Program-made: the position numbers and the translations under genes
Shown here: piece after piece, positions 1-64,000 of the stretch
Numbering within the stretch: the first letter of the stretch is position 1
Layout: each line of letters begins with the position of its first letter
Source of the DNA: Chrysomallon squamiferum
Taxonomy: Eukaryota > Animalia > Mollusca
Assembly (NCBI GenBank): GCA_012295275.1
Contig: CM022672.1
Coordinates: 3,968,001 to 4,032,000, forward strand
Direction of reading: 5' to 3'
Length of the DNA stretch: 64,000 nucleotides
The notes under the pieces: generated by a model
The model's database searches: none
Seen by the model: only the letters and a program-made list of their open reading frames with translations
Told to the model about the DNA's origin: nothing

Positions 1-4804
<4,804 letters not shown>

Positions 4805-18104: not shown

Positions 18105-21100
18105 TTAGTTTTCTCCCTTCAGTGTACTCTCCAATTCTCCCCCTTCCTTCAGTTCCTTCAAAAAAAAAAAAAAAAAGTGTTAGTTTAAATTGTGAAGCAG
18201 CTTCATGCAGTTAAAATTATTATCAAATTTAAATTACATCTTTCCATGAAGAGCTAAAATTCAGTTTTCAATAAAATATACCTGACCCAAGAATACTTTG
18301 ACGAGCACAGATTCTGTGAGCCATCACTCTAAGGTTAGCTATCAGCCACTGCTCTATACTGCACCTTCAGGATCATTTCTTTCAAAAACCAAAATAAACT
18401 TCAGAATCAATCCTGATTCATTACATAAAATTTAACACCTGGGTAATCCATTTATGACTCTCACGAGCATAAATTTAAAATTCAACAAAAAAGAAGGCAG
18501 AGAATAAAAACAACGACCCATTAATGGAATATGGATGTATTTAGGCCATTTGAACTGTACAAATTAAAATGCATTTCAAGATTAACACAATAAACTATCT
18601 GAAATCTGAATGCAGTAAAATGCTCACTTTTATGATGTCCAAGCCACCAACCAGCTCGCCTTTGACATACACCTGCGGATAGGTGGGCCAGTTGGAGAAC
18701 TTCTTCAACCCCTGTCGGATTTCCTCATCTGTTAGAATATCAAAGGTGCTGAATGGAATGCTGTAATAACAAATTAATAAATGACAGACTTTGGAAGACG
18801 AAAAGACTTTATTGGCAAAGCTGTACTATGATTATCAGGTTTAAAACACAAAACACAACAAGAACTCATGTTGATAAATGAAGCAACATCTTAAAAACAA
18901 TGATAAAATAATAACCTGTACACTTCTAAGTTTTATTATTTTATTGCTGTAATTTATTAGTACTAAAAGTTAATGTCATTATAAATAAATCAGTTTGATG
19001 ATCATACTTTGACCACTTGTTTGTACCACTTACTGTATAGTACAGTTTCAGTTTCAACATAACAAATTAGATTATCCATGTCACAAATGATGTTTTAAGA
19101 AATGAAGTTTTAAATACACACCCAGTTTCCTTGAGAATCCCAACCAGAGTTTTACTGAAGCCACACCTAGGAGCATCTGGCTCACCCTTCATAAACACCA
19201 TCACTTTGGATTTGTTTATAAGTTTTTTAAGTCTGTAATAAAATAATTAATATATATATATATGTATTTATATATCAGAGGATTTTAAAAATGCAACCTG
19301 CAACATACCCTGAAAAAATTAAAATCAATATGCCTTGAAACTATTATGGTTTATTATTATTCTTATTATAAAATAAATAAATAATAAATAAAAATTAATA
19401 TTATTAATCACAACTGTTTTATTTTTGGGGACTTTTTATTTTATTTTACCTTCTATGGATTGGGTGTTGCCATTATCATTTCCTTGCAAGGTTTTATACT
19501 GGAAAAAATGTCATATTAATTTATCTTCATATTTTATATATATATACATATATATATATGAAGACAGACATCCAAGGATGACAATGTATAGCTCTTGAGA
19601 CCTCTACAAGTTCACAGATTCATTTACGATCAGGCCATCTTTAAAAAAAATTCATATTACAGAAAATTCAGTTTATATCAGTAGGAAAAAATAAAAATAA
19701 ATATTGTCAAGGATGGCATGTTGTTATTTAATATTCCCAAAGACTCGTATAAAACAGGTGTGCATGCATAATGAGAAATGACTCATAAACAATTCACTAT
19801 CATCTGTGTTTGCCAGTCACACACTTTGTGTACTGGAATACAGCTTGGTTAAAAAAATGTTTTTTTGAAGGGTGGTTTGGGTTTCTTACATATCAAATTT
19901 TATATTCAAGTTTAAGTAAATCAGTTTGCAGGCTGCTAAGTATTCAGTGTGAACACAAATACATTTTTGATGTGAAATGTGATGTGTAAAAGTAAATACA
20001 CATATATATGTATTTTGAAAGGTGATCCTGATACAGACAAACATTTTATGTAACCTGATGCAAATGCTACTAATACACTTTATTTGTATTTGTAAATGTG
20101 AAGTCGAAAATTGTTTCCAGTTCCTTAAAGTTGAATATTTCATGTTTAGCATGAGCAATAGTTACATTATCAGTTCATCTCAGTATACAGCACTTTATAT
20201 TTTCTTTTTCAGTGTTTCTCTGCTGGTATATCATACATTAAATATTTAGCTTCTAAATATATGCTATTACCTTGAAGTGGTTGTGGGAGACTCTCTCAAA
20301 TACAATCATTACAAAATTACAAGCATTAACCAGCACCGATAAAGATATTAAAATTATTTTAAAACATTATATATTTTTTATTAACTGTATTCAATAACAG
20401 AATATTTTGACATTTTCTTGTTTTGAATATTTCTATACTTTTGAAATCTGACAAAATGGTACTGAATTATATCATAAATTGTAATTCAAACGTAAAAAAT
20501 AAAACAAAATAATAAATGAATAAATAATAATTTAAAAAACAATACTAATAACAATAAAATAAATTTTATTCAGGAACTTTCTATTTTTAGTTAATTAAAA
20601 ATTAAAATTAAATGAAATTAAAAAACAAAATAAAATAAAATTTTAAAAAAGTGCTTTCTATTTTTATTTTTTATTTTTTATATTTATTACATAGAAACAA
20701 TGGAAAGCCTGAGATGCCATCACTGATTTGTAAATAATAGATGTAAATTATTTTGTGCTTTTGAAATGGATTGTTTTTGGCTGAAGAACTCTGCAGAATT
20801 TAATAACAATAATTAATAAGTAGATGAAAAAGAAGAGAACAATGAAATTGTCTGCATTTATTTATGTGCAGTAAACAACCAATGCACAATACAAATAAAC
20901 AAATTGAATATTGTAATGCAACTATATAACTTATGAATAGAAACTATTAAAAATGCACAAATACTTCAACTATGTAAATTGTATAAACTTCAACACTGTA
21001 TGAATACATTTAAACATGAACTTCTATGGGATAAAAATATGTTTGACTACAAAGAACAAAACATTGTAAGGCACATTCCATAAAGTACATGTGCCCTGTA

Positions 21101-22240: not shown

Positions 22241-24608
22241 TTTTTTTATCTGCAACTGAAACTGAATTCAGTAACATTATCAGAATGGTACACTGATTTG
22301 CTAATTACTATAATATAGATACTTTTAATTGTTATACAACATTTTTTAATGTTGTTCTTCAATAATAGTTTTTCTACACTTATAAAAGGTCAATTCAGGG
22401 GGAAAAAGATTTATAATTGTTACGATTTAATACTAGGAAATTGTCAAAAATATTCACATAGCACTGTCACTGTCAAGATTAATGTGCAATAATTTCATTT
22501 GGAACTGTTATATCATCAAATATGTATTTTTATGTTTTTGGACTTACTGAATACATGAAAACTGGAAAAAATTTATTAAAATTTTATACATCTTTTGTGA
22601 GAAAGGGTAGCAGATGTAACTGACATTATGATTACAGATAAAAAGTACTTGAAACATATGTTTTTAAGGCAATCTTTGCAGCTGAAATACTGTCCACTGA
22701 GGTACAGAAAATATTCATCTGTTCTTAATTTTTTAGTCAAATCCAAGAATACATAAAAATATTATGTTCTGTTTGCATAATTTAATCCAGTATATTTATT
22801 ATAAATAGATGATAAATGCTTGTGAAAAAAAAAAATAATAATAATAAATTACCAGCTAAGAAGTATAATTGTACCATAAAAAATTACATTTTTATAAATA
22901 ATTACTTCATCATCTTTCTTCATTTCATTTTTTTATAAAACATAATTAGCACAAATAGTAGTTAATTAACAAGGAAAATGCTGATGGTCTGTCTGATTTA
23001 CATTTTGAACTAGATGATCTTTATATTTATATGGCTTTGGTGTTAAAAAAGATTTAAAAAAAAAAAGTACATTAAAACAGAACAGGTCTTCCCCCACCCC
23101 TCCTCAAACTCTCCATTATTCCTTAATGAGAAGCATCCAATACAGCAGATGATTCATTGCCATCAGAAACTGATTCATTATCATCAGAATCAGATGAATT
23201 TTTGAAATTCTGAAACCGCAATCTGCTGTCTTTTTTATTTTTCTTTGAATTAGTTTCTGGTTTACATGGTTCAGAGTCCATAGAATCATCATAATTTTCA
23301 TCATACACAAATTTCAGTTTTTTAGCACTGGAGACATCTCTTAAATTATACCCGCTAGTCTTTTTGTCTTTGGTTAGTTTTGATCCATTTGGCTCCCGAT
23401 CCAGTTTTGAATAAACACTGAGAATATCCGAGGTTACTTTATTTAAATCTTGCACTATAGGATCGCTGGATCCATCTGCAATGGACTGAGACATTTCAAA
23501 ATGAAGCCCTTCAATGTCACTCTGGGAATCATCTGAATCAACATTTTGGTTCTTTTTCTTTGATTTTGGCCGAGAATGGCGACGTCTTTGCTGCTGCCGT
23601 CTTGCCTGATCATACTCTGGATAAAGACAGCGTAGTTCAGACTCCCTTGCTCGATGAAGTCGTTTTCGTTCCAGATCTCTCTGTTTTTTCTGTTCATATT
23701 TGTCTTTATAATCAGGGTCATTTTTCAACCTGTCCCTGTAATTCCGAGCTCGATTTCTATTCTGTTCTCGGTACTCATACCCTTTCATCATCATCTCTGT
23801 CAACTTCAGCTCAAAAGCATGAGGATCGAGAGATGTTTGACCAGGTAATAACGGCATGGGGCCGATCAACTGCTGAACAAGAAGCAATTGCATTGGGGTG
23901 AGCTGGGCAGCAATTCCTCCAGGGACTGGATCAAGATGTTTGGGGTTGGGATCCAGCTGAAGAAATCGGTCACCCATTTTATTTTGAAGTATTGAAAGAT
24001 GATATATAAACCATTCTTGAGCCCGTTTCACAGTACCAGGGTCATGTAATACAGTGCTGGTGACTTCATCTTGCAAAAATGATTTACTGATATCTATTTC
24101 AGTGGTTTCTAGATCACTACAGGCTGACACTGCATGTGTTGTGTTTGTTTTTCTAGGTGTAGAATGCCTGAAAATCAAAATTGATCAGCTTGAATAAATA
24201 AATAAAGAAAAGACATTCTTCATATTATTTGAAATTAAGAAATTGAGCTGGTGGAGAAATAAGTCTTACACAAACAATGTGAAGATTTTAGGGCCAAAAC
24301 TGATGTAAGTTACAATTTGCCTGAAAATTATATATTTTCCAATACAATCTTGAATTTTATGTTGTTATTATAATAATCAGATTTTTAAAATAAATTTTTA
24401 AAGCCTTAATGCAACTCATTATTTCACTGAACTGCTAAGACTCATTATTTTAAGACTGGCCATCAGATGCAAATAAAACAAAAAGCTAAATGTTCACAGA
24501 AAAAGTCTAGTGTAACTGTAATTATGAGTGAATTTAGAAAAGTGTGTCCTGTTGGTGAATTATTATTAATATTATTTTTTTATTTTTTTATTTATTTATT
24601 TTTATTAT

Positions 24609-24662
<54 letters not shown>

Positions 24663-27600
24663 CATAATGGTGATATTCAAAAGGATCTATTTACCTACCT
24701 TGAAATACTGCCATTTTCACACAATGCTGCATCATCGTGACTAGAAGCTACTGACTGGGAAGATGAGGTTAGGACATTAGTTACAGCATTCTCTGCAGAT
24801 GGTTCATCCTCAAACAATGATGGAACAATTCTCATAACACTGGGAGACACCAACTGGGCAACAGATTGTGAAAAGTTTATCTCCAAATTTTCCTCTTCCT
24901 TATTATCAACTTCCATCTGAATATCCTGTTCTTCATTTGAATCAAAACCTTTAGGTAGCCTTTCCATTTCCTCTGGGGAAAGTTCAGTCTTTACTGCATT
25001 GTTAGTATCACATGCATTGTCGCTGCCATTTTGTAGATGTTCTGTTACAGATTTTTTAGTGTTTGGCTCCCCTTCACTGACAACAGCAGAGTTGGACAGA
25101 CTGAAGCTGGAATCATTGGAGGAATACCCTGACATATTTACACTTGAATTGGACAAAACAGAATTATGAAGGTAAGCAGATGATTGATCCTGGGAAGGTT
25201 TCTGACCTCTTTCAGTATGGTCAAATGTTTTATTATTGAAGTCAGGGCTTCCCAGTGAAAACATAGAAAGTAATGATTTGCTCACAAATGATGCATCTGA
25301 TACTTCTTTGCCAGAAAAACCAGCTACCAGGAGTGAAGGATCTAGAGAAGAGTCTATAGATTTTGTTGAATCAAATAATCCCATACTTTTCTTCCATCTT
25401 TCCATCTGTTTCCTTAATCTTTCTTTTTCTTTGAAAGCTGCAGCAGCTTCAGGATTCTCTTTTAACTTGGCTCTTCTTTGTCTCATTCTTTCTCTATCTA
25501 GAGCTCTCTTCCTTTCAAGCTTCTCTCTCATCTTCACCAATTCTTCAGTTAAATGTGGAACTGCTGGTGCTAGTGATGGGTCACAACTGTTCAGTGATGT
25601 GGATGGAAGATGACCTGATGACAAAGCTAGAAGATTTGGTAGCTGAAAAGGGACATTTTCTCCTTCAGTTATAGAGGCCATTGTCACTCTGACCAGTTCA
25701 TCAGGAGGCAAGGAAAGCAAAAGAGTATTCCTCCTCCTTTCGATTCTCTTGCGAATTTTCTCTCGTTCTCGTATAGCTGCTGCCTGTTCTGGATCCTTCT
25801 CTCGAAGTTCTGCTCGTTTTCTTCTTACTCTTTCAGCTGCCTCTGCTCTCTTCATTTCCAGATGAGCCCTCAATTTAGCCAGATTTGCTGCTGTTTCTGA
25901 ATCTAGAGGAAGCTGTTTCAGCAGACAGTTTCCAGGTGTACCTTCTGACAAAGATGCTATTGCTGCCTGAAGAATTTCAGTGTTGTTCGCAGCTTCTTTC
26001 AGTGTTTCATCTGGAAGTGAAAGAAGAATAGCATTTCTCTTTCTCTCCTCTCTTTTTTTCAGCTTCTGTTTTTCTCTTTCCATTGCTGCTGCTACTGGAT
26101 CATTTTCCCTAAGTTGTTGTCTTCTTAGTCTCATCTTTTCTCGACTAATTAATTTAATTTTCTCCTTTGTTAATCCATCCATGTTCAACCTCTTCAGTCT
26201 CATTCGTTCACGATTTGTAGCACGCCTCTGTTCCTCCTTCTGTTTAAGATCTTCAATATTATCTTGTGAACTAAAAGGGAAAGGAATCGAAACAGGATTA
26301 CCTTCATCATCCAGGATATCTGTATTTGCTGCAAGTCCAGCTGCTTCAGATAGAAGGTCTGGTGGAAGAGACAACAGCAACTGATTACGTTTTCTCAACA
26401 TTTGTTTTCTTGTTCGGTCTTTCTCTCTTTCTTCTTCAAGCTTTTCAGGATTTGATAATCGAAGCTGCTGACGTCGCCTTCTCCTATATTCTGTATTTTT
26501 CTGTCTCCTAATCTCCTCTGAGAGAGAGTTTTGACGTTTCCTTCTCCTTCGATATCCTGAATTTCGAGGTGACTTTGAGGATATTTGCTGTTTTCTGAAT
26601 TTTTCTTTTTGATCTGAATTAGGAAGCCACTCCTCTCCAATGTCTTCCTGTTCAAACTGAGAATCATCTGACGACTGCATACACATGTCACTTAGGTCAT
26701 CTCCTTGGAAATGCGAGTCAAAAAATGCGTCTTCTATTTCCTGTTTAACTTCAACCAATGATTCTCCTTCTATGAAAGATTCATTCATGTTTTCACGGAT
26801 TTTATTATTGGTTGAATCTGTATCCAAACAGTGATTTGAATAGTTAAGTAATTTTGAACATTTTTTTTGTGAATTTCTACAACTTTTTTCAAACATATTT
26901 CCTTTTTGTTGTAAAACAGAAAGCATCTTGGGATCACTGGTTTCATTTTCAAGCAGTTTCAGTCTTTTCTCTCTTCTTCGCTGGTTTATTCGAAACTGAC
27001 ACAGTTCATTGTAATCTTTTTCTGACTCCATTTTAAGATTTACCTTCCATACATTATTCAGACTTCTTTTTCTCTTATTCCTGCTTGTCAGGTTACAATT
27101 GTTAGAATTATATGAATGAATACCCTGATTACTATTTACATCACCATTGTAATCACTCAGATAAGTCTGGCCCATAACATTTGGGTCATAACAAAATTGT
27201 AATTCACTGTGGTCTATTGGTTCTTGTTTTACTTTATCTAGGCTAAACTGACAAGAATTATCACTACTTTCTGTCTGAGGATGAAGACAGAGCTCCAAAG
27301 AAGCTGAACTATCATCCTCAAGATTCCCACTAGATTTTGCTATTTGTCCTGAACTAATACAATCCTCTTTAAGCTGACTAACACAATCTTCCAATTTTTT
27401 TCTCTTCCGAAAATTCTGTCTGACAGTTTCACTTTTATCACGGCTGGTCTTGTTTTGTCCATGAATCTTAACAGGAACTTGTTGTTGCTTAGCTAGGTCA
27501 GTTTCAGAACATTCATGCTGGCTTTCGCCATCACTGGATTCATTTTTAGTCATATGACACGAATCATTTGTTTTTCTAAGGTGTTTTATTTGAGGTATAT

Positions 27601-30600
27601 CTTTCTCATCACTGCTGTCTGGATTCGAGGGAGTTTAGATCAGGCATTACAATTAGGTTTCTGTCAGGCATCGTCAACGCAGACTCCTGATTCGCAATGC
27701 CATGCCTGAAACAGGAAACAATCCAAAATACTAGAAACATTTAAAATCTTACACTGCTGCAAGTCAGAAAACTCTTTCCTCACCATCTTCATTTTTTACA
27801 TTAACATATTAACAGTACAATGATCCTTGCAGAATATATAACAAACAAAATTTAGAACAATTAAATATTCAGTAATTAGACAACCCTTTTTATATATTAC
27901 TAACATTATAATATATACATCAATAAAACTTATAATATTAAAATACAATGATGAAAATAAATTAGGTGAGAGCGATTTTAAATGAAATTCTAGTTTGGAT
28001 TGTTTCCAAAAATGCTATCTAATTTTCTGCTTCAAAACATAAACAACAAATTCCATCATATTAAAAATATTTTTAATAACCCACCTGTCAATGTGTCATG
28101 TATATAGTAAATAAAGTAAAACTAATCCCAATATTAAATGAATTTTTAATAAAATATTTTGAGAAAACCTGTTCTGTAATTCTGACAAAAATCACATCTT
28201 CCACACAAAAACATAAACAACAGAAAATCATTTAATTTTTTTTCCCTATAATTTCTGCAGATGACACAAAATTATGTGTTCCATCATTTTCGTGCATAAT
28301 GAAATAAAAATATATAACTGAACAGGTTTTTTTTTTTTTAAATATTTTATGAACAGCACCAAAGCATTTAAACAATCTTATTTGAAACATTATTATTAAA
28401 AGTATTGTGGTAAATATATTTAAACTGTTTATTTAATTCTTGATTTGGTTCATTAAATAGTAACAGGTTATAGCCCAACTCAAAAGCTGAGTCAGTGTAA
28501 TAACAATAATTATTTTCTTACACAACCATACGATTTATATTATTAATATCTATTTCAAACCAAACACAAACACTGAGCTAGTCTTAACATCATTCCTATT
28601 AAATACTGTTAAATTCAATAATATGACTTCTACGTCAGTGAGAGAGATAGTGTAATGTATTTTGGGGGTAAATAATTTTTGAAATCAACATTAAAAACTT
28701 ACCTTTCTTCCAAGCCACCGTCTCCCCCGGCTTTAAGCTCAGACTCAAGTTGGCCTGTCTCAACAAGCTCCTTGATGATATCCAGCCCTCCGACCAGTTC
28801 TCCTTTACAGTATACTTGTGGGTAGGTGGGCCAGTTTGAGAAGGTCTTTAATCCTGTAATTAAAATAATCAACTACAAGATACATTCTCAGTTATCATAC
28901 AAGACACACTCAGTTGATTTTCAGTTTTATTATCATTCAAGGTACATTTATATTTTAAGTAAGTAATTTTTGCTTTAACAAGTATCAGGAAACCCACTGA
29001 AACCTGAAGTTATTCTTAATCATTAGCAGCAAATGATATTTTTTTAATCAATTTTATTCCTTTTATAATATCTGCCACTTACAGAAATGGTGGAAAGCAG
29101 TCCACTGGGGATAGAGATGATTTATCTGTGATTCATTATGTATCATTAAACTATATAAAACTTGAATTTATATGACTACCACATGCTGCAGAGTTTTTAA
29201 AACTCACCTTGCCTGATTTCATCATCTGCCAAGATGTTGAAAAAACTGTATTTAATATTCTTGTCATTCAGAATCTGTATCAGCTGACGGCTGAATCCTG
29301 AAATCAATGGTTTATAAGCGTATAGCATTAAACTAAATAATTTTCATCTCTGAATTTGTCAAATATGCAACAACCTTTTAAAATAATAATGTTGTAATAA
29401 TTTTTTCAACTTAACACATGTTCAAGAGATCTTCAAATTTTAACATCTAATAAATTTCAATTTTATATGTTAGGAACATTTTAAAAAATAATAATAAAAA
29501 TTTAACATTACTGAAAAGGTTTAATTCAATCTGTCAGCAATTTACATGACTATGTCCTTTAAAAATTGTATTTTATAACTACATTTCAGTGGTTAACAAA
29601 AAGAAAGCATTCTAATAACATATCCAAAATAGGAACGTGCAGGTGAATATTTGCTCTGTTACTATGGGCATAGCTATTATGAAAAGGCCAATGAACAGTA
29701 AACAACAAACCACATTTAGGTTCCTCAGGAGTTCCTTTTATGAATATCATGATGGGAGCCACATTGATCAGAGTCTTCAGTCGTGTGTTCAGATCCTACA
29801 ACAGTATTAATGTCATTTAGTAAAATGTTATTTACTATGAAAATGGTTTAAACGTGGGCATGAATCTAGCAGATTTAAGAAACCATTCAAGTAGTAAATA
29901 ATTAATTCATGTAAACAAAATAAATTTATCATTTTCTTTTTCTTTTTCAAAACTTCTATGTGTACACACACACACACACATACACATACAAACACAAACA
30001 TAAACATAAACAGATTAAAAAACACACACACACACACATTTCAGTGCTAATGTGTGTATGCATCTGCATGTGTGAGTGTGCACATATTCCTAGGTAGCAG
30101 CTGGTTAAAGAAAACATTATAATTCTGAATTACACTACCTGATTAAGAACCAGTATTTTATGTAAACTGCATAATTCTCACCGGTTTTTCAACAGACTTG
30201 GGTGGACTCACAGCATCCTTCCCCACAGATGCAAGCTGTTTTACTTTCTTGCTCAACTCAGCCACTTTGGCACCATCAAGACGATCAATCTTTTTCTTGT
30301 TCTTAACACAAAAACACACACAAAAAACACATAGATTAAAATCACAAATATAGCACTTTTATCATTAAGTAAGAAAAAAAAAAAAAAAAAAATTCTAAAA
30401 TAAATTATAATTTAAAATGTAGTCATATATTCTTTCAAACACTCATTTTATAGTTATCACAAAATTAATCTGAATATGGTGATGAAGCTTGCTACTCTTT
30501 AGATGTCAAAAACATCTACATTTTCTATTGAATTCCAATATTAATCCAATATAATTATATATAATTTAATTACCTTAAAAAACAAGCATGTCGGTACAGC

Positions 30601-33600
30601 AACTACCTGATATTTCTGAGAAATTTCAGCCAGTCCTTCTGCTTCAATCTAAACATAAAATAGTATATTTATAATTAGGTTAAACGTTTGTCCTTTTTAC
30701 CAATAATAGTAGGATAATTGTTAAAACAAAGATATCATTGTAGCTTTAGGAGATTATTTTAATTTGTGAAAATGTATTTGCATGTATTCAAGTAAACTGT
30801 AACAAAACAATTATCTGAAAGTATACAACACATTTTTAAGCAGTTTGTTGGGACCTGTTGAACAGTAAACAATCAAAGCGAATATTTGTAAATATACAAA
30901 ATGTATTTAAACTTTAGTTAACAAATATACAGACCTCCACAAATTTAACATTACTGAGCTGAGAATCCTTCGACAGCTCTGTCATGACATCATTCATCTG
31001 CTGGCACTGTGGAGCCCATGGAGCCGAGAAGTGAACAACAACCAGAGTGCTATAAAATAAATAAATACATTAATTCTGTTTAATACCTTAACAAATTTAA
31101 CATTAACAATCATGTAAAATATAGGGGTGGGTGATGTTTTTTGTTTTTTAATGAAGATGATAACTTTAATTTTCTTACATTATAAAACAAATTTAGAAAA
31201 AGAAGAAAATAATGGTCAGAAACCACTTGGGAAGCAATGAATTCAGTGGGGAAAAAAATAAGGCTCTGCTAACAATGAACACAACCCAACATTCCATCAA
31301 AGAACTATAATCTACTCCAGTAAATAGCCAAACATTCAAGCCATTTTTTTTTTCTAAATGAAAATATATGTATTACATAAATTGGCAGCCATACTTAATT
31401 TATACATTCCTGAAATTGCACATTATTTACTGTGAACACATGTATTATGTGCACAAATGTTTTATGTACCACCAGTTGTATCGTGAAAGTAATATATTTT
31501 GTATTTACTTTATAAAGAATTAGTTTTAAATAAAAAATATCTCTTGATGAATGAATCATGGATTTGTTTTTTTACATAGAATTTTAATTTTTTTTAAAAT
31601 AACAATGAAAGAAGCAAAGAAAAATAATAATAATGATGATAAAAGGAATAATGAAAAGGACAATATTAACTGGTAAAAGACAACAAAATTACTAAAAGAA
31701 AATTATCACAAGAAAATATAAATGTATTGTATACACTAACTAATTTAAATTTTACATAATATATTTAATTGAAAAAATATAGAGTTTAAACTTTAATATC
31801 AACTTGCTACAAATGTTCATGTTTTATTTATGAAAGTAATTTCACATTCAGAATGTACCTATGACAAGCTGTCATTATTGAATTGTGGCAAACTGATGAT
31901 TAAACATCTATAAATATATTCATAAAAAAACCCGCATGGACACTTACTACTGGTACCTGCTAATATTTTAATGAATTAGGGGATACTGAAGTAGATGTAT
32001 CACAAGAGTACAACATTAGAGGTATAGGTGCACAAGAACATATAAATATTAAATATTAAGTAAAAAAAAAAAAAAAAAAGACAAACAAACAAATGTGCAT
32101 TATTGTGTTATGATTTATGTTGCTGTTTTGTTGTTGTTGTTGTTTTGGGGTTTGTTTGGGTTTTTTTACATCTTTTTATATATTTTATCAAAATAATAAA
32201 ATTATCTGGATTAAGATATTAAGCATTCATGTAAAAATTTAATTTTCACATTAAAAATATTTATGGATGGACCATCTTTTTTATATGATTGTTTCAGCAT
32301 AGTATAGTAAAATTAATTAACCTAGAATAAATTAAAAACATCTAATTCTGTATTGCAAAGATGGCTTGCCATACAAAAAACTTCCAACATTTCTATGAAG
32401 GGAAACATTACACATTAAACCTTCTAGAAAAAGGAAATGGAAGAATTGATATATTAATTACAAAATTAAGAGTTAAGACATAGTAAAAATATAGAAATTG
32501 TACATTATATTTAAACTGGTTTATTCATTACTGTAACACATTTCTGGCAATTACTAAGCAGAAAATGGCTTTGCTATTAAGCAATCACTGTTTGTTTTTT
32601 GTTAAGAATCAAATCTAAAACACTGACAGTGACACACTGTTAGTTAGGCAGTTAGATGATGAAAAAAGGAATAATAAAAAAAATTATATTTAATTATAAT
32701 GCACTTTACCTAATTTGAATCTGTGGTGATAAGATGTTTTATTTATTTAATAAGCATATAAAGAAACATGAAAAGAGAATTAACACAAAAAAGAAGTAAA
32801 TAATAACAAATTCATAAATTTATATTATGGTAACATTAAATCATAATATTATTTGATATTTAAGACAAAAAAAAAAAAAAAAAAAACAATATTAATTTAG
32901 CTTTCAACTATTTCAGGGTTGTTTTTTTTACAGGTTGAGGATTTTTATTTATTCATTTATTCATTAATTTATTATATTTTTTATTAACTTTTTTCTTCTT
33001 CTTCCTTTTTTTTGTTGTTCTTTGTTGGGGGTTTTCTTGTAAATAAAACTGCAGTGTACAAGAGGAAGTCATCTAATTATGGTATTAATGGTAAAAAGGT
33101 ACAATAGCAAGTTACAATTTTTGGAATTTTCAAGCTAGAATTTGTACAAAACAGTATTGAACTGTATGTATTAAAGCATCAATATATTAAACATGTCTAA
33201 ACACAACCGAGATACAAATAATAAGGATGAAATTTGTGGTTGATTAAACAAGCACCATAATTTGAAGATATTTTGAATTATATAAAAATAAAATTATTCA
33301 GAGGTTAGGGCATTTTTCATGTCCATTGGAAATGATAAACTCTTTTTTTTTATGATCTTATTTACAAATTCCTTATGATTTTTTTTTTGATTTTTTTTAC
33401 TGTAATTCTGCAGCTCAAAGTATTTAATTTACTGAATTTATCAGCTGCTTCAGAAAAAGTTTTCATCAGAACTCATTTAGTTTGTAACATCTTAATTCTT
33501 TTCAGTATTTGCTTGTGTTGAAATTGTGCTTACTTACATAGTAAGTTACATGCTTATAAGCAATATGATATACATATGATTTTGATAGTAGAACTAGAAG

Positions 33601-34168
33601 TATTCCATGTTCTATCAGTATCACACAAACACTTTATTATCAGCCTCATGTTTAAACTATCTTATGTAATACAGGTTCTAAATAATAAATGTTGAAAGAA
33701 CATGCAACCGTTATCACACTAACAATAACTATGTGGTATGTAGCACTTGGGACGTTGGGTCGTGACTTGTCAAAATATTAAAAATAAAATGATTAAAAAT
33801 CTTTATTTTTCGGATATGTTGTATACTATACAGTATAGTCGTTGTTCATTTCGAATATCAAAATAATATCTGATCACAGGTGATATATAACAAATTAAAA
33901 CCACCGGTTTCTTTTGTGCTATCAAAATTTAGAACGAGTTAGATTTGGGTCAATTCAGTATAATAATAGTATTCATAGACTGACGAAATACCTTGGACGG
34001 TGTGTTTTGTGTCAAGTTCTAATAAAGAATAAAAAATATATGTGGTGAAAATAAATATCGGACAGCTTGAACAAAAATGTAGAGTTCGTAAAATAATTAT
34101 TACCTGTCAGAATCTGCCAGTAATTTGTTGAATTCTTCTGTCTTCTCAACTTTAACTACGGCAGCCAT
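18105..34168 (-). CDS. GLRX3: Glutaredoxin-3 (PICOT): Trx-like domain plus two monothiol CGFS Grx domains, about 331 aa
   Basis: Exons 34168-34104 (MAAVVKVEK), 31049-30935 (WAPQC), 30648-30574, 30301-30182, 29795-29711 ([11 protein letters not shown]), 29297-29208 (GFSRQ), 28853-28703 ([10 protein letters not shown]...GGLDIIKE), 19232-19122 ([14 protein letters not shown]), 18760-18628 ([10 protein letters not shown]), 18155-18105 ([16 protein letters not shown]). Total 996 nt, in frame. Confidence 0.97.
23123..24167 (-). CDS. Terminal exon B of the nested protein
   Basis: Acceptor ATTTTCAG|GCAT at 24167, phase 2, in frame with exon A (R-HSTPRK...). About 348 codons to TAA at 23125-23123. 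Contains a further basic module ([39 protein letters not shown]). Minus-strand AATAAA near 22795-22800. Confidence 0.85.
24699..27553 (-). CDS. Large exon A of an uncharacterised ~1299-aa protein nested in GLRX3 intron 7 (basic helical repeats, probably nuclear)
   Basis: 952-codon ORF in AT-rich DNA. It ends at a strong phase-2 donor AAG|GTAGGT (24699) and the frame stays open upstream to 27634. Strong acceptor TTGTTTCCTGTTTCAG|G at 27705. Four Arg/Lys/Glu repeats, NLS-like RKRKK, and psi-K-x-E motifs (VKQE x2, LKME, VKTE). Confidence 0.88.
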
Positions 34169-35897
34169 CTTTCTTTCTTTTTTTTTTTTTTTTTTTTTTT
34201 TTTCACTTTTTTTTCTCCCACCGGTTATTAACGAATATTGGGTTATCTCCCTTACAATATGTACAATAACTTATCAAAAGATTCACATATTGTAATAACA
34301 CGATATTCGCTAACTTGTCAAAATGTAACTTCTGACTTATTTAAACAAAAAAATAATAAAATAAAATAACAACAACAACACAATCAGCGATAAAGAATAT
34401 GAAAAAATTGTTCTAGCAAACGGCTGCGTAACTAATTAAACTGTAACAATAACTCTATTATCTATAAAAGTTTTGTTGTTGTTGTAGCTTTGCACATATT
34501 CGAAGTTATCATCATCCAGTTCAGTCACAGAGTATCTCAGTATGTGGATTACTATTTTTATCTATCGTATAAGTGTCTGTTTATGCCTGCAGAGTGGTGA
34601 ATGTTAAAAGAATATTTTGACTTACATTTGTTGAAGGAGGAAAGATAACTCATTTTAAGAATAAGGCGGGAAGGACGTTGGGAGATTGCGAATTGTTGTA
34701 ATCAAAGTTATGTAATAAAATGAATATTTTCCGGTCCTGAGTGTGGCTTTCAATCGTTCCGGTTTGGTGAGAACATTATATTGTTACAGGTTTAACTGGA
34801 GCAATTTTATCTTTTAGAATGGTCTCACAAATATATCCTTTCAAGTCTCGTTTGATTTATGATAAAGAAAGTCATTGTTTGCATACATAATAGTATATGT
34901 TTTAGAAGTTGAATGTCTTTGGTTTTAACAAATGAGTGAAAATTTAATTTCTAACTAATTTTTTTATACAACCGGTTGACGGACCATAATTTTTGTTTTG
35001 TTTGTTTTTGTTTTTAATTTTCTTTTGTAAAACTTCATCAAGCGTTATCAAGGCAATCATTCAAATAACATGATCAGTTTGCTTTTTACATGTAAATACC
35101 ACCTCTAATGCACTGAAAATGGAAATAAATAATTTAAAAAAAGAAGAAGACGACGAAGAAGAATTATAAGTTTCAAGTATCGTTTTACAACTACATTCTC
35201 AGAAATGTCCGCTATGGAGTTTTAGCAGAGTAACGTGTCCACATTATGGTACCTAATGAAAATAGTCATCTTCATATTCACGTGCCAGTGTTTGAGGAAA
35301 TTATTTTATTTTATTATTAAATTTTTATTTTTTGGTTGGCGATGTCATAATATCTGAAAAATATATATTGTACGAAACGTGTACAAGATGGCATGACGTC
35401 AAAGTTATCCCCCCCCCCCAAAAAAACCAAAAAACCAAAAAGGTTTCGACCTTTGCAGCCATGAACTCACGGAAATTTTTAAACTTCCAAATTCAGTTAC
35501 TTAACGTCTGTTTTCTGAACATTTTATGATTTACACTGATAAAGATTAGAAGAGTTGGTCATATTAGCAAACCATGATGTCGCGAGCCTTTCGTAACTAC
35601 TTTTTCAGTTAATCAAACGTCAAACTGGATTATTTTTGTGTGAATGCGTCGTGCATAATAAACTAAAATTATAATTCGGAAAAATATTAATGTATTAACT
35701 TTTGTAGTTGTCAATGTTCCCCCGTCAGAACCCAGCAGAAAACAACATTTAGGTGTTATTTGTACCCATTAAATTTGCGAAATTTCTTTGACATAATTTG
35801 TGACGTTACGCCTTATCGTTCCATGCTAATCAAAGTGTCTGCTGCAGGTGAGTTTTGTCTGGTTCTGTGAATTATATTCTTTACAAAAAATATATAT

Positions 35898-35965
<68 letters not shown>

Positions 35966-37026
35966 TTTATTTTTTTTTTTTTTTTTTTGGAACTTGCATA
36001 TATTATATATACGTACGTGTGTGTGTGTGTGTGTGTATGTGAAAATCGTCGCTTACATCTATTTTGTTTAAGGACGATACATGGACTGCTGAGCCTGTAA
36101 AGTGCAAAACAATGGTTGACAGCCAATCTAAATGAACGGGTGGCGGATACTGCTGACGAATGTCGTGCGAACTCGTCGACCTTTAAATTTGGTTTTCAAT
36201 TTTCTGTTGTAAAACTGCTATCAAGCATTGTAATGAATGTATCAAGGCAATCATTCAAATAACGTGATCAATTTGCTTCTTACATGCAAGTACCACCTCC
36301 AATGCATTGAAAATGAAAAGAAATATAAATAATAAAAAAAAAAAAAGAGAAGAAATTCAAGAATTATAATTGTTTCTAGCTACAGAGCTTTAGCACATTA
36401 TGGTACCCAATGATAATCGTCATCTTCATATTCACGCGCCAGTGTCTGTGAAAATTATTATTATTATTATTATTATAATTTTTTTTTTTTTTTTTTTTTT
36501 TTGCTGGCGAAGTAATAATATTGGAAAACAAATGTACACTACGAAACGGGTACGAGATGGTATAACGTCAAAGTATCTACTTTTTCAACTTAACATTTCA
36601 AACTGGATTATTTTTGTGCAAATGCATGCATAATACACTAAAATTATTATTTGGTATAAGATTAATGTATTCCCCGTGTCAGAACGCAACAGAAAAGAAC
36701 ATTCAGGTGTAGTTCGCGCCTATTAAATTCTGGCGGCATGTTTTCCGGTGATGTGATTTGTGCCGTTGCGAGTTATCGTTCCTGTTGGTCGTTGCTACTT
36801 CCAGTATGTTGCGAGACCTTTGTCGTGAATTATGATCATGCTTACATTTTTGTAATTGTTTCACTTTATGATTAAATTCAGTATAAAATTATAATTCTTT
36901 AATGTTAAAATTAAATTACATGTAGTGTTATTTAAGTGGCAAAATTCAGGACGTCTAACTCTAAGGCCAAAAAACAAAACTTCATTAAACTTATGTTTGC
37001 AGAACCCAAATTCTCGGGAGATTGGC
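34169..37026. promoter_or_regulatory. Divergent GLRX3/NUP107 promoter and 5'UTR region
   Basis: Head-to-head genes. GGCGGGAA at 34665-34672 and CCGG-containing motifs. Candidate + strand non-coding first-exon donors at 34766 (TTG|GTGAGA) and 35847 (CAG|GTGAGT); acceptor TGTTTGCAG at 37002. Confidence 0.55.
35020..36785. repeat. Diverged tandem duplication (about 35020-35825 and 36200-36785)
   Basis: Shared collinear blocks such as TATCAAGGCAATCATTCAAATAAC, GTCATCTTCATATTCACG, CAAACTGGATTATTTTTGTG and TTATCGTTCC. Copy 1 has an extra ~190 nt. Confidence 0.85.
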
Positions 37027-40000
37027 ATGGAAGGAGATTTTGTTCCTGAGAGGGAGGAGACGAAAGGAAGGGTCTTCAAACGACAGAGCAGCAATCTCAG
37101 TTATAATATATGTAAGATATTTTGTAACTAATTTGTGTAAGATGTACTGTATCTGAAACTGGTTTAAAATGTGTTGTAACTGCTTGTGTAAGTGTATTAT
37201 AATTATGACTTGTCTGATATATAAACTAATGTTGATTAAATTAAACTAAATAGTACATTTCAAAATATTTTATAAGGTTTGCCACTGGATTGTTTTGTTT
37301 TTGACCAATCTTTTTTCTTAATATATATCATCACTTTTCTATAAGAGCTGTGTTATTTTGCATTTCCACTGACTTTAGAAGTAAATCCATTTTTTACTCC
37401 AAAAATGATGATCTTAATATTTATTATTTAAATATTTCAGTAGATGATTTTCTTTACTGATCACTAATTGAATTTATAATTGCCTTTTCAAAAGCAAGTT
37501 GATCTTTTTTGTAGCTGAGGTGTGATGTGCAATATAGGACTGAATTCAAAATATACTTCACTGTGACTATCCAAAAATATCAGTATTTTTTAAAATATAG
37601 AGTAAAATGTATTTAATACACGTTACTAAGCCATCTGTAATTCTTCAGCAAATTTAATTTTTTTTTTTTTTTATCCTGATTCATTAGCTGTTAAAACAAA
37701 TTACTTAATTAGTCTGAACTACTGCAAACATTGTTTTTCAGTTTATTAACTGATATTAATCATTATTATATTTTAACATTTTCAGCAAAACAACTTCTAG
37801 ATAGTGCAGTGGGAACCTCAGCATCACTGTCAAAAACACAAAATGGAAGACAACTGCGTCACAGTCGCTGTATGTATCACATTTTCTACACCACTCATTT
37901 CAGATACCTTCTATATTGGGTATTTAATTAAAAGTCTTTTATATTGTGCTTCATATTTTTGACATTGTAAGAAAGAAGGCTAGAGTACATGTTATAGTGA
38001 CACTTTTATTATTATATGTTTTAAATTTTAATTTTAAGTTTCTTTTAACTTTTGTAGATACTCCAATACCAGTGCCAACATCTCCTAATTTAGATGTTTC
38101 TCATATGTTTGCTCCAACACCCCAAAAACCTGAGATGGTAAATAATAGTCTTGACATATTTCAAATGTTAATACATTTGTTCGTTTTTTCTTAATGTTGT
38201 GTGTATTTAGATATATAAATATGAAATATATAATGTAGCTTGTAACTGACGATAAACATTTGTTTTGGGGTAACTATTCTTTTTACCAGACTGACTATAT
38301 ATTTGGAAAGACTCTCTTACAGACACACTGTATTTATGGAATTATTTTCACTTGTTAGTAACTTGATATGACAAAAGGAATCTTATTGCTTCTTTTCAGT
38401 ACTTTAGAGTATGATTGTCAAAGAAAATGTACATCATGCATACCTTGCTGGTCATTGAAAAAGATTAGCTTATAACATATTGAGTTAGGTCGCCCTTATG
38501 ATGTTTAACTTCAGATCTGATGCTGTGTAAGACAGCTTACTTGAGTCATGAAGCATTTCTTTCTTACTTAGCTTTGTGTGTCAAAATTATCAAACTTTGT
38601 GCTGTATATGTTCATGAAGTAAAACTTTTAATATCACATAATAATCATGGATATTAGTGTTAAAGGCAAATTCAACAGAAGTTTTTGTAATTATAGGATG
38701 ATGTGACTGAGGATCTAACAACAACAAACCTTGACTTGCTTTTGGAAGAAGACCCCGGTGTTACAGGTAAATATATTTTTACAAAATATATAATATATCA
38801 ATTTTAAGTATAAATAATTTACCATTTTGAATATCGTTCAGTTATAGTTTTATGATATTAACAGTAAATTAATATGAACATGTTCCTATACTATTTTATT
38901 TTTTTAATTAATATTTACTCTAACTAAAATTTATCATAGTTTATGTTTATATGCATTGGTTTTAATTATTTTCTTGTTAATTTTATTTTTCATTATTATT
39001 ATTATTATTATTGTTTATAAACATTAACTATCATAAATTTTAATTACAATAAATATTAATTTAAAAAAAAAATAGAGAGAGTAATATATATTTAATACAA
39101 ATGTTATTGTTACTATTATCATCATTATTATTAGAAGTAGAATATTTTAGGCATAGGATACTTTTTTCAAATACTTTTAATAACTTTTATATATATATAT
39201 ATATATATTTCATTTACAAGTGAACTTTCTCTTTTCATTTATTTGTTTATAAACAGCTTCTTCAGGTCTTTATAAGGATTTCCAGCTGAGTATGAAGCGA
39301 TGTCCTGCCCAACACCAGGTTCTTGATCTTCTACATGACTATGAAAACATCTGTAGGGACCAGGTGCTCGTGTTAAAGAAACTTGTCCAGAGAGCTGTTC
39401 CTCAGCAAGAAAAGTACAGTTTATATTTGGCTATTATATATACAGTTTGAAAATCCCTTACCTGAAATAATGAGATCCAAAAATTCACAATATCCTAGTC
39501 TTGTTTGTAGTTGCTGAGGTAGTTATTGCTTCGCTATCTGATTGCTTTCATTTCACAAGATTATTAAATATATCACAAAAAACAGCCTTCCGGCTATGTG
39601 TAAGATGGATCTGAAATGTAAACAGATTTCATGGTTGAAGTCCATTTTCAAGCCCTGTTATTGTTTATTTATTTATTTATTTTAGATTTAGGAAAACATT
39701 TAAGACTCTAGACTTACTGGACAAGGAGAAAATTACATGGCAGCTAGTGAGAGCTCTGTATCAAGATAGACTGGAGTCTGAAGTTAGAAAACAAGACAGC
39801 AAAGATGAGGATATGATTGTAGACCTTGACAAAAAGGTGAATAGTTGCTATTGTTCCATTTACTTCAGTATAAGCAATTAGAGAAGATATCCTTAGCATG
39901 ACAATTTTAATTTGCCATAGTTTAGAGTATAAAATGCAAGACATTGTTATTGCAGTTGTTCTGGCTGCCGCTTTTTGTTGGAGTAACCAGTACATATGTT

Positions 40001-42002
40001 AAATGTGAATGAGTTACTAATTTTTTTTTTTTTTTTTTTTTGGTGTATGTATGTGTTGCTATATAGGTAGTTAAATAAAAAAAAAAAAATCATCATTTCA
40101 GGTTCGGCATCTTAGTGACAAGACTGTAGTGATCAACCTGTATGAGAGAAATGACAGTTTGCGTCAAAGTCAGGTAGGTGTTTTAAATTTTCTCTTTCAC
40201 CCATTTTTCATTATAAAATAATAATGTTGTTCTTGTTTCCATTCAGAATGAAACTAATTTTTAAAGCAGTAATTTATGTAACTTCTAGTGTTAATAAGAT
40301 TCTTCTAAATCCTTTAGCGCCTTTTGTAAAATGAGTGTAATTATATATTTCATATGTATATAAGCTATAAAGAACAAATAAACCTAAATTTGTGTTGGTG
40401 AAAAATAAATATTGTCTGGTTTTTGTTACACATAATAATAAATCATTGTTGAAGAAGTTAGACTGATTGTTTCATTTGCATATTGGCTTGACTGGATAAG
40501 GAAATAGTTGTTCTTTTTACTTAGCTTGTTATTGATTGGCTGGAGAACTCTACTGCAGAATGCCTGGAATTGTTAGCTCAGAAAGTAAACTTTTTCACTG
40601 ATGTGCCTATTGCTTGGTAAGAATACATTTTTAAATATTTTAAAGTTGTATATAATTCACATTATCTAAGCATCATATTTTATTATCATCATAGGATGGT
40701 AGCTAGTAATGAACAACAAAGAATATTAAAAAATTATTTAATCTGTTTTTTTTTTCTTCTCATCTGTACATTTCAAGTTATAGCAATCAATACCTAAACC
40801 AGAAATTGTTATTATTTTTTTTTAATTGCATAATTTATATAATTTGTATTTTTAGGGAGAACACTCTTCATGAGTTGCAAAATAGAGCCAGAGGAATTCC
40901 CAGTTCTACTGACCGACTCCTTGTTGATGAACTGGTACATTTAAACTTTTTTCTGTGTCTCTTACTCAGGGTTAAATATACAAGCATATCATACAAATGT
41001 GGAACCACATGAAAACTGTTATATTCTTACATTTTACTCTAATTATTCTTTCAAGTTGCCTGCTGGGTTTTTTAAATATATAATTAGATGTGTTTATTGA
41101 TAACAGGGGCTAATTTTCTTTAATAAAAGCATTTATTTTGAAATTGAAAATATTTTTTTCAAATCTATTTTAAAAATTTATAGCATTCAGAATAGCCTTT
41201 GTGTATTTATTGTACATATTTAAAAAATATAAAGATAATTCTTTTCTTTTTCTTTTATTGATATATTAATTTATTTTAAAGGATCCTGATGCTCCAATTC
41301 GCCAGAACGGAATCTTGGATGATTTGGATAAAGAGGATGAAGACAGACTCTTACAACATGTGTTTGTCTGTTTGCGAGCTGGGCAGCTAGACAAAGTATT
41401 ATTATTTAATTGTTTGAAAAGTCAACTTTAAAAATATAACCTAAAAATAACTGTTTTTAAAATACACTTCTGTTTTGCATACATTTAAATTATATATACG
41501 GGTGGGTGGGTGTGGGTGTATGTGCATACACATATAAATGTACTCTCAAAAACTATAATTTAAAATATTTGTTTGTTTCTTTAAGCTTGAAACAATCATT
41601 ACAGCATGATAGCATGTCAAAGTCTTGATATTTACAAAACTTGCCCACTGTATAAGCAGGTTTCCTTTCTCCTTGTTTTTATTGTCCCTTACAACATAGA
41701 TTTCACTTCCTACAGTGAACTGTTAATGTGCTCCTCCTTCCTTCAGGCTCAAGAGGCATGTCACAAAAGAGGACAGCATTGGCGTGCAGCAACAATGGAA
41801 GGATGGAAACTCTACCACGACCCCAACTTTGAAAAATTAGGCCCTGATAATCAGTTGGCACCAGTAGAGGGCAACCCAAACCGCGATGTTTGGAAGAAAG
41901 TGTGCTGGAGAATGGCTGCTGATGTAAGCATGAAATAAATATTTATAGAGTATTAAAATGCTTTTTAATTTTTATTTTATTTTAATTTTATTTTTATTTT
42001 AC

Positions 42003-42039
<37 letters not shown>

Positions 42040-51599: not shown

Positions 51600-52211
51600 T
51601 CACGATACTGATGAGTTGACAGTTTTGAACTTGCTTAAGCCATGTCTAAGATATCGACATTCTTTCAGGTCCTCCCATTCAGAATCACAAATAGGGCCCC
51701 TGGGATACGTCGGTGTCAGCAGCAGACGAGGATGAAGAGGTGCTGGCTTCACGGTGTAAATTGGCGGCAACAGCATGGGTGGTAAACGTAGCGGTCTTTC
51801 GCGTGGCTCCAGTGAAACATTTTCTTCCTGTTTTATTTTGCGGTTCACAGGCTGCTGATGCAAATCCAAAGACGGTAAAGGCTGTGTTCCTGAACTTCTT
51901 TTTCGTCGTTCGTGACCTTCGTTTCGCGATTCCCGTCGTATCTTTAGTTTTTCCTCTGAATTATCTGCAGTAGAAGAATCGCTGAAGTTGCTGCTAGAAG
52001 CAAAACTTGCCTTAGAATAAGACTGATATGAACAAATGCCGTATCTCCTCTGCCGACTGTTTTTCCTTCGCGTCAACAATGGCTTGTTAGTGGCGTCAAC
52101 AGACAAGATTCTTTCTAAAATCTGCAAATCTGTGCCGAATCCTTTACGCTTTTCACTGCTTGAAAATAACTTCTTTTCAGGTTCAAATCTATTACCGCGT
52201 TGAGAATACAT
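51600..52211 (-). CDS. Uncharacterised single-coding-exon 203-aa basic, low-complexity protein
   Basis: Intact ATG-to-TGA ORF, GC-richer than its flanks. Motifs RRYGIC, RLPPMLLPPIY and C-terminal WEDLKECRYLR. Minus-strand AATAAA near 51257. Confidence 0.75.
   Translation of the reverse strand: MYSQRGNRFEPEKKLFSSSEKRKGFGTDLQILERILSVDATNKPLLTRRKNSRQRRYGICSYQSYSKASFASSSNFSDSSTADNSEEKLKIRRESRNEGHERRKRSSGTQPLPSLDLHQQPVNRKIKQEENVSLEPRERPLRLPPMLLPPIYTVKPAPLHPRLLLTPTYPRGPICDSEWEDLKECRYLRHGLSKFKTVNSSVS

Positions 52212-56642: not shown

Positions 56643-64000
<7,358 letters not shown>

Follow-up and report, generated by a model that had tools for sequence, protein, structure and literature searches.

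Alternative last exons nested in GLRX3

We found that exon 7 of GLRX3 in the snail Chrysomallon squamiferum has two alternative splicing partners, exon 8 or a pair of large exons, A and B, nested within intron 7, and that these nested exons are genuine parts of a GLRX3 transcript. Together with exons 1 to 7 they predict a 1,584-residue fusion consisting of a thioredoxin domain, one complete CGFS glutaredoxin (Grx) domain and 1,350 further residues with five basic helix-kink-helix modules. The features lie in the 64,000-nucleotide stretch of DNA analyzed here, which we call the window (Table 1).

Table 1. Features of GLRX3 and of the nested exons, in window positions
Feature	Position	Strand	Description and basis
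GLRX3 exon 1, coding part	34104..34168	-	Start codon at 34168; spliced frame compared with G. aegis GLRX3
GLRX3 exon 2	30935..31049	-	Thioredoxin-like domain; spliced frame
GLRX3 exon 3	30574..30648	-	Spliced frame
GLRX3 exon 4	30182..30301	-	Join to exon 5 appears as a loose end in 3/3 RNA runs
GLRX3 exon 5	29711..29795	-	Grx domain 1 begins; CGFS motif split across exons 5 and 6
GLRX3 exon 6	29208..29297	-	Joins 5-6 and 6-7 in 3/3 RNA runs
GLRX3 exon 7	28703..28853	-	Grx domain 1 ends; one phase-2 donor serves exon 8 and exon A
In-frame intronic ATG	27738..27740	-	11 codons upstream of the acceptor codon; might begin a separate transcript; outside the RNA contigs
Nested exon A	24699..27705	-	3,007 bases in window, 3,009 according to reads; both ends in phase 2; RNA contigs
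Two-base gap of the window	27620..27621	.	Both bases present in 4/4 runs
Invariant 17-residue block	27359..27409	-	Basic NLS-like run, then Cys-x7-Cys; invariant in 3/3 lineages
Repeat core	25340..26539	-	Four basic helix-[N/D]P-helix modules, spacing 102-117 residues; net charge +26
Nested exon B, coding part to stop	23123..24167	-	Alternative last exon; RNA contigs and spliced frame
Fifth basic module	23567..23791	-	Within exon B; profile score and predicted model
Likely 3' UTR of fusion message	22795..23122	-	First AATAAA at 22800-22795; putative poly(A) site
GLRX3 exon 8	19122..19232	-	Grx domain 2 begins, second CGFS; RNA contigs and spliced frame
GLRX3 exon 9	18628..18760	-	Spliced frame
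GLRX3 exon 10, coding part to stop	18105..18155	-	Spliced frame

The RNA evidence comes from one study, as assembled contigs rather than reads, which were compared over 24670-29900; exon B, exons 8 to 10 and the 3' end were followed through loose ends and contig sizes. Contigs of all three RNA runs contain the join of exon 7 to the 27705 acceptor of exon A, and all three also use the join of exon 7 to exon 8. The exon A-exon B join is present in two of the three runs, the third having no piece that extends there, and a single 4,225-base contig (X2) runs from exon 7 through the whole of exon A into exon B. The fusion contigs have depths of 28.9, 11.2 and 9.0, compared with 187.6, 64.5 and 46.2 for the shared exons, a hint, from what is a poor measure of expression, that the fusion is a minor isoform. 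The exon 7-exon A join is shown in this one species, where the nesting within intron 7 is also read directly. By length bookkeeping, one RNA contig extends to about 22983 at the 3' end.

Taken directly from the window sequence, the 27705 acceptor leads into a frame other than that of the 979-codon open reading frame, and a stop follows after 31 codons. However, all four runs (three RNA runs and one that is unlabelled and intron-spanning) carry two extra bases behind 27620, and with these bases exons 1 to 7, A and B form one continuous frame with a single stop. The two-base gap is therefore probably an assembly error, or alternatively a rare allele. Exons 1 to 7 comprise 701 coding bases and end in phase 2; exons 8 to 10 complete the ordinary GLRX3 of 331 residues, of which 276 are identical to those of Gigantopelta aegis GLRX3. 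Like animal GLRX3 in general, this isoform has two Grx domains, which are separated by intron 7 (28702-19233).

The spliced frame bore out the coordinates and phases that the first-pass annotation gave for the GLRX3 and nested exons, and GT or AG is present at every splice site it named. The exon 7-exon A join gives RNA-level support to its proposal that a monothiol glutaredoxin is physically coupled to the nested protein, but the isoforms it emphasized were different ones. Exon 7 joined to exon B gives an open frame on paper (582 residues), as do exons 7, A and 8 (1,334 residues), whereas neither the 7-B nor the A-8 join occurs among the RNA contigs, in which rare forms are lost; we rejected both as main products. 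Since the isoform found consists of exons 1 to 7, A and B, the junction peptide proposed earlier (GGLEERHSTPR) is the wrong search target. It had also considered that no reads might join GLRX3 to the nested exons, or that these might be a recent insertion absent from the GLRX3 of relatives; instead, exon 7 is spliced to them, and an orthologue apparently sits at the GLRX3 locus of G. aegis.

Domains and basic repeats of the fusion protein

The fusion breaks off from ordinary GLRX3 exactly after Grx domain 1. Its thioredoxin-like N terminus is present, as exons 1 to 4 align to G. aegis GLRX3 (Pfam Thioredoxin at 6-106), and KGTP (145), CGFS (153), WPTYPQ (191) and GGLD (205) are all retained in the fusion frame; KGTP, WPTYPQ and GGLD presumably bind glutathione. 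The fusion carries a single CGFS and lacks the two-Grx-domain feature of animal GLRX3. In human cells, Trx-GrxA alone is reported to rescue GLRX3 knockout, the CGFS cysteine being required (PMC12375892), and this report and the intact motifs suggest that the fusion would bind a [2Fe-2S] cluster together with either glutathione or BolA2.

The repeat core is invariant at 326 of 400 residues in all three lineages compared, demonstrating that the nested frame is not a chance one, while the flanks are invariant at 125/365 and 86/213. Two psi-K-x-E motifs (SUMO-type) occupy the same columns in 3/3 lineages, and the core contains five runs of four or more K/R. Autocorrelation gives peaks at 102-125 (z up to 6.5) and a weak one at 22 (z 2.7); within the modules, the helix-proline-helix spacing is fixed at about 23-24 residues. 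The fifth module scores 21.2 bits on a profile built from modules 1 to 4, a value reached by 0/300 shuffles, and is helical in the predicted model. Long helices interrupted at proline turns are predicted (pTM 0.21), the models being weak overall (pTM 0.21 and 0.37) and built on three-sequence alignments. From composition, motifs and this low-confidence modeling, the fusion is likely to be nuclear and to bind nucleic acid, DNA or RNA; the basic run of the 17-residue block is what we take to be a nuclear localization signal.

The modules could not be placed in a known family. N-x7-R, which we take to be the bZIP basic-region motif, is visible by eye in three of the basic helices, with a proline turn within about 25 residues in 5/5 modules; we rejected bZIP membership because there is no unbroken leucine zipper and no bZIP Pfam match. 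The STPR repeats of FMBP-1 and ZNF821 are described as basic helices arranged in tandem, interrupted by short kinks and spaced about 23 residues apart, with Glu1, Thr/Ser2 and Arg9 as the signature of each repeat (PMC4856987). The snail modules share the near-23-residue spacing and, if the low-confidence model is right, would also consist of basic helices joined by short kinks, but their helices are paired and 102-117 residues apart rather than strict tandem 23-mers, and they have no Pfam match. The STPR signature occurs at one site in the 1,584 residues, outside the modules; with signature and strict tandem repeats both absent from them, STPR membership was rejected.

For the nested protein, Pfam gave no family above the cut-off, the best ESM Atlas scores (0.80 and 0.77) were at chance level, and the PDB sequence searches returned two matches each at E 0.38-1.4, also chance. 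Foldseek with the core model found 0 matches at E 0.001, and the VIA-wide searches found single long helices only, with a best Z of 4.9 for exon B (rmsd 2.3, 57 aligned) and 5.7 for the core (rmsd 1.9, 55 aligned). Such blank structure searches do not demonstrate a new fold.

Relatives and alternative explanations

G. aegis has an orthologue of the nested protein, 64% identical, which RefSeq lists as a separate 1,375-residue protein without Grx. This orthologue (XP_041368686.1) and G. aegis GLRX3 (XP_041368687.1) bear consecutive accessions, each on a contig of 91,665,651 bases; the orthologue thus appears to sit at the GLRX3 locus. A third lineage (P0127) shares the acceptor context, with seven identical read-through residues, and keeps the frame; both early exon A methionines of the window are replaced there, the first methionine being at residue 73. 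No wider homologue was found among 1.84 billion representatives, and scans of JGI metagenomes gave no relative (54 and 412 pattern matches, 0 confirmed). Judged from these sequences, the nested protein seems to be lineage-restricted, found so far in the window species and two close relatives. Among the 120 Grx matches listed of 1,005, no protein exceeds 567 residues, and a GLRX3 isoform with GrxB swapped through an alternative last exon was found nowhere else in the searches; one alignment search took in proteins of 2,408-5,000 residues only and is uninformative at the size of the fusion.

It seems to us distinctly improbable that A and B form an independent gene starting within intron 7, with splicing to GLRX3 as a by-product. 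The separate RefSeq model in G. aegis would agree with this, as would the in-frame ATG at 27740, which has a methionine counterpart in P0127, the two early methionines of exon A (residues 12 and 20), and a low-depth RNA contig within intron 7 (28080-28323). However, this contig is unconnected to exon A, the contig containing the 5' end of exon A continues straight into exon 7 in 3/3 RNA runs, no listed RNA piece extends from exon A past the 27705 acceptor into the upstream intron, and the third lineage lacks both early methionines. A promoter scan with a bacterial model, irrelevant to animal DNA, gave 6 sites against 8.2 expected. The idea of a recent transposon insertion, or of a decaying pseudogene captured by splicing, is largely refuted and stands far lower in our estimate. 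The homologues found are confined to three lineages and the window does contain a frameshift, but 4/4 runs are free of it, conservation is strong and domain-focused, and the nested exons are divided by an internal phase-2 intron. Five proteins of the nested family matched no Pfam transposase or reverse transcriptase family at E up to 1; no terminal repeats occur among the matches listed (25 of 166 inverted pairs, 20 of 28 direct families), and the listed repeats of intron 7 are essentially AT-rich microsatellites and short AT-rich pairs. The nested gene has one copy within the 64-kb window and is present in two other lineages; we rejected a recent transposon. Some transposon proteins have basic repeats of similar look, so an ancient transposon origin could still apply.

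The remaining alternatives accept the fusion as real. We consider it unlikely, but worth serious weight, that a young nuclear gene borrows the promoter, first exons and start codon of GLRX3, with the Grx having no control over it. The nested gene lacks a conserved start of its own, so the join would need no iron function to explain it; Grx1 is set apart from the first module by about 390 residues of poor conservation (the 125/365 flank), which gives no reason to expect direct allosteric contact; and conservation of the Trx-Grx1 exons is already accounted for by ordinary GLRX3. On the other hand, the break point retains exactly the unit that suffices in human cells, which, being kept whole, should let the fusion still bind clusters and partners wherever it is located, and the invariant Cys-x7-Cys block is close to the join. 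It is improbable, in our view, that the Grx matters while the basic helices are RNA, nucleolar or microtubule binders or stiff single-helix spacers, the fusion delivering clusters or anchoring GLRX3 with no role in transcription. The abundance of E, R and K in the modules is a trait of single alpha-helix domains too, and nothing ties the modules to any DNA-binding family; yet the +26 charge of the core, the conserved SUMO-type motifs and the 23-24-residue helix-proline-helix spacing better fit chromatin proteins.

Proposed mechanism and comparison with known systems

Our preferred reading, an alternative-last-exon fusion that is likely nuclear, likely DNA-binding and carries its own iron-sulfur-binding module to its sites, is tentative, and we put it somewhat short of an even chance. 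Exon 7 is spliced to exon 8 or to the two large exons of intron 7, and the second message would be translated to the 1,584-residue protein. The basic runs may direct its nuclear import, and the five modules would bind DNA much as STPR helices do, which sit in the DNA major groove. Through its CGFS cysteine, the protein could share a [2Fe-2S]/glutathione bridge with another copy of the fusion, with ordinary GLRX3 or with BolA2; the iron-sulfur supply would then control the dimer state, which in turn would govern how far the protein occupies or acts on chromatin. In its fullest form, the reading says that Gigantopelta-lineage vent snails made a one-chain regulator from last exons captured inside GLRX3, with DNA binding by an undescribed repeat family switched by the iron-sulfur cluster of its own Grx, reinventing in one animal polypeptide the fungal Grx4-transcription-factor iron circuit; this we hold to be rather unlikely.

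Animals sense iron mainly post-transcriptionally, via IRP proteins, whereas in fungi Grx3/4 relay iron-sulfur status to transcription factors. An animal version of this relay has a direct candidate in a GLRX3 isoform that attaches the functional Trx-GrxA unit to a conserved protein of basic repeats; if this is true, the isoform would supply the nucleus with a built-in iron-sulfur sensor. The lineage lives in iron- and sulfide-rich vent fluid, and its family includes the scaly-foot snail with its armour of iron sulfide. Even without iron control, an essential housekeeping gene has gained a new 1,350-residue C terminus, masked here by the probable two-base assembly error and, for G. aegis, apparently annotated as two genes in RefSeq.

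In fungi, Grx and its partner transcription factors are different polypeptides, the factors having GATA or bZIP domains. As described for Grx3/Grx4/GrxD with Fep1, HapX, Cir1 and Php4, the fusion likewise places one Trx and one CGFS Grx beside a presumed transcriptional regulator, but in one chain and with a partner region of no known family. Arabidopsis GRXS16 is reported to combine a GIY-YIG endonuclease with a CGFS Grx, the two regulating each other by a disulfide to the CGFS cysteine (PMC5890173). Both proteins thus fuse a CGFS Grx to a DNA-acting domain, DNA action being predicted in the snail; however, GRXS16 is plastidial and constitutive, with an N-terminal nuclease and without Trx, whereas the snail fusion gains C-terminal non-enzymatic repeats by alternative splicing. 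Compared with animal GLRX3/PICOT (Trx-GrxA-GrxB), the ordinary isoform is a plain member, while the fusion retains Trx-GrxA and, through its alternative last exons, carries 1,350 unrelated residues in place of GrxB. Human PICOT is itself reported to be in part chromatin-bound via EED (PMC6746821).

Two splice routes leave GLRX3 exon 7

GT-AG splicing of the minus-strand gene for glutaredoxin-3 (GLRX3, PICOT) yields a protein of 331 residues, which in the alignment agrees with Gigantopelta aegis GLRX3 at 276 of them. Because exons 1 to 7 sum to 701 bases, intron 7 is in phase 2, and it holds two long same-strand frames, which measure 979 and 353 codons between stops. The open reading frames of at least 100 codons listed for 15000-40000 number six, including both nested frames and antisense shadows of them (two opposite exon A, one opposite exon B). 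Every donor and acceptor named by the first-pass annotation was found in the window, all in phase 2.

Features of the GLRX3 locus and its surroundings (window positions)
Feature	Position	Strand	Remark
GLRX3	34168 to 18105	-	ten exons
GLRX3 intron 7	28702-19233	-	separates Grx domains 1 and 2
Exon A	24699-27705	-	four modules
Exon B	23123-24167	-	coding part; one module
Two-base gap	27620-27621
End of intron before exon A	27706-27740	-	last 35 bases; ATG at 27740
X1 intronic contig	28080-28323		276 bases, depth 5.8
Similar blocks	~35000-35800, 36200-36800		upstream of GLRX3; by eye
Exons presumably of SMC3	1100-3900	-
Exons presumably of NUP107	37900-49300	+
Exons presumably of DHX15/PRP43	57200-64000	+
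S/K/R-rich frame	51603-52241	-	213 codons

Of the five runs that cover the stretch, four are RNA from a single study and one, from another study, is unlabelled. Four of the five, the RNA runs X1, X2 and X3 and the unlabelled X5, were compared with the window over 24670-29900 as contigs, in which rare forms are lost and start sites invisible. In all three RNA runs compared, contigs pass from the exon 7 donor directly to the acceptor at 27705, skipping 997 bases with GT-AG borders, while X5 crosses the whole stretch as one DNA-like piece without this join. Loose ends past the exon A donor match the start of exon B exactly (X1, X2), and loose ends past the exon 7 donor match that of exon 8 exactly (X1-X3). 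The joins exon 7 to A, A to B and exon 7 to 8 were all found in RNA, and two splice routes leave exon 7. An X2 contig of 4,225 bases carries the final 31 bases of exon 7, the complete exon A and 1,185 more bases, a length consistent with exon B followed by some 140 bases of 3' UTR. The joins favoured earlier, exon 7 to B and exon A to exon 8, had no loose end among the 18 of 34 rows listed, although rare forms escape contigs. None of the RNA pieces listed runs past the 27705 acceptor into the intron. The intronic X1 contig, beside an A-run and unjoined to exon A, is most simply pre-mRNA or DNA, and may be an alternative first exon.

Reading frame and start of exon A

As given, the window sets the 27705 acceptor out of frame with the 979-codon frame, and exon 7 read through it meets a stop after 31 codons, leaving a 265-residue product. 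All four runs compared carry two additional bases behind 27620; with these restored, exons 1-7, A and B form a single 1,584-residue frame with one stop (the fusion), the CGFS domain is whole in it, and, once repaired, the stretch aligns with its orthologue from G. aegis. The gap is most simply explained as an assembly error and may instead be a rare allele of the assembled animal; annotation made on this assembly would split or truncate the gene there. In an ENA contig of a third lineage, exon A is cut in two (gene calls P0127 and P0128) at the first module, probably by a further assembly frameshift.

P0127 runs across the acceptor. Over the intron end it shares seven residues with the window without a mismatch, and in the eleven codons that follow neither frame nor length has changed. 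Other residues stand in place of the window's methionines 12 and 20, the first methionine being residue 73. Since acceptor context and frame are kept and the methionines are not, the simplest explanation is that translation enters exon A from a coding exon upstream. The methionine of P0124, another gene call, is taken as an alternative start call, because P0127 has valine at that place. Against the upstream-exon reading counts a methionine 11 codons ahead of the acceptor codon in both the window and the third lineage; from its ATG the frame stays open to the intron end, and most codons match the third lineage. This methionine could start an independent product, or the conserved segment could merely be an intron end or splice signal. 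At the other end of exon A, P0124 stops at the arginine that terminates exon A in the G. aegis alignment, so that its sequence is consistent with an A/B intron common to the lineages.

Relatives and modules of the nested protein

Searched with exon B, a set of 3,369 candidates (609-2,000 residues) yielded one match, G. aegis LOC121383017 (XP_041368686.1; 1,375 aa, E 2e-142), which aligned along the entire nested part with 905 of 1,409 columns identical. Its accession and that of G. aegis GLRX3 (XP_041368687.1) are consecutive, and each is placed on a contig of 91,665,651 bases, which points to one locus, without indicating the intron. A phmmer search with 843 residues of this orthologue against 1.84 billion representatives gave two matches, P0124 and P0125, unnamed ENA gene calls corresponding to exons A and B of the third lineage, whose exon A is identical to the window at 603/956 positions and to G. 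aegis at 700/970. No other mollusc matched at E 0.001 in phmmer, whose sensitivity biased composition reduces, and the nested part therefore looks lineage-restricted. The window would accordingly come from a vent snail near Gigantopelta, of the family Peltospiridae.

Pfam gave no family at cut-off for the nested protein. In each of its five modules two basic helices flank an [N/D]-P turn; against a profile built from the other four, the exon B module scored 21.2 bits, more than any of 300 shuffles. Residues invariant in three lineages number 326/400 in the four-module core (net charge +26), 125/365 before it and 86/213 after it, and include a 17-residue block in which a Cys-x7-Cys stretch adjoins a basic run. 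In all three lineages the same columns hold two psi-K-x-E motifs, putative SUMO sites (shuffle P 0.004-0.03 per species). AlphaFold2 models from three-sequence alignments have long helices interrupted at the turns (mean pLDDT 68; pTM 0.21 and 0.37). STPR repeats are successive helices wrapping the DNA major groove (PMC4856987). The modelled helices broken by short turns resemble them, and by analogy the modules may work alike; however, the modules follow no strict period of 23 residues and lack the signature of Glu1, Thr/Ser2 and Arg9, and the protein is not an STPR member.

Readings of the fusion, novelty and surroundings

We consider it very probable that the fusion is real and translated and, if so, likely that it binds nucleic acid. 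Our best explanation as a whole, held tentatively at somewhat under even chances, is that the translated protein would enter the nucleus and its modules bind DNA, while Grx1 would form cluster-bridged dimers through which iron-sulfur supply tunes it. True iron-switched transcriptional control seems doubtful. As its main rival, Trx-Grx1 would be a passenger, borrowed along with the promoter. In human cells lacking GLRX3, Trx-GrxA is enough for rescue, for which it requires the CGFS cysteine (PMC12375892), a fraction of human PICOT sits on chromatin (PMC6746821), and in plant GRXS16 a nuclease and a CGFS Grx are coupled and control each other (PMC5890173).

The fusion is a real variant of GLRX3 that appears to be undescribed, and its extension is an orphan that probably binds nucleic acid. 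Full-text searches, with subscription journals mostly outside coverage, gave no paper combining glutaredoxin 3 with Gigantopelta or scaly-foot snail with glutaredoxin. Peltospiridae did not appear in the 15 matches listed out of 665, nor glutaredoxin 3 in the 15 listed out of 78, and no title among the 20 listed out of 173 concerned a GLRX3 isoform. None of the 120 Grx matches listed (of 1,005) exceeded 567 residues, and a survey of Grx domain fusions, in 12 of 28 passages, names no Trx-Grx-basic-repeat architecture (PMC2679010).

For the S/K/R-rich frame, Pfam gave no family above cut-off. Judged by their peptides, the neighbours of GLRX3 look like ordinary housekeeping genes. The two similar blocks, several hundred bases each, are probably a dispersed repeat.
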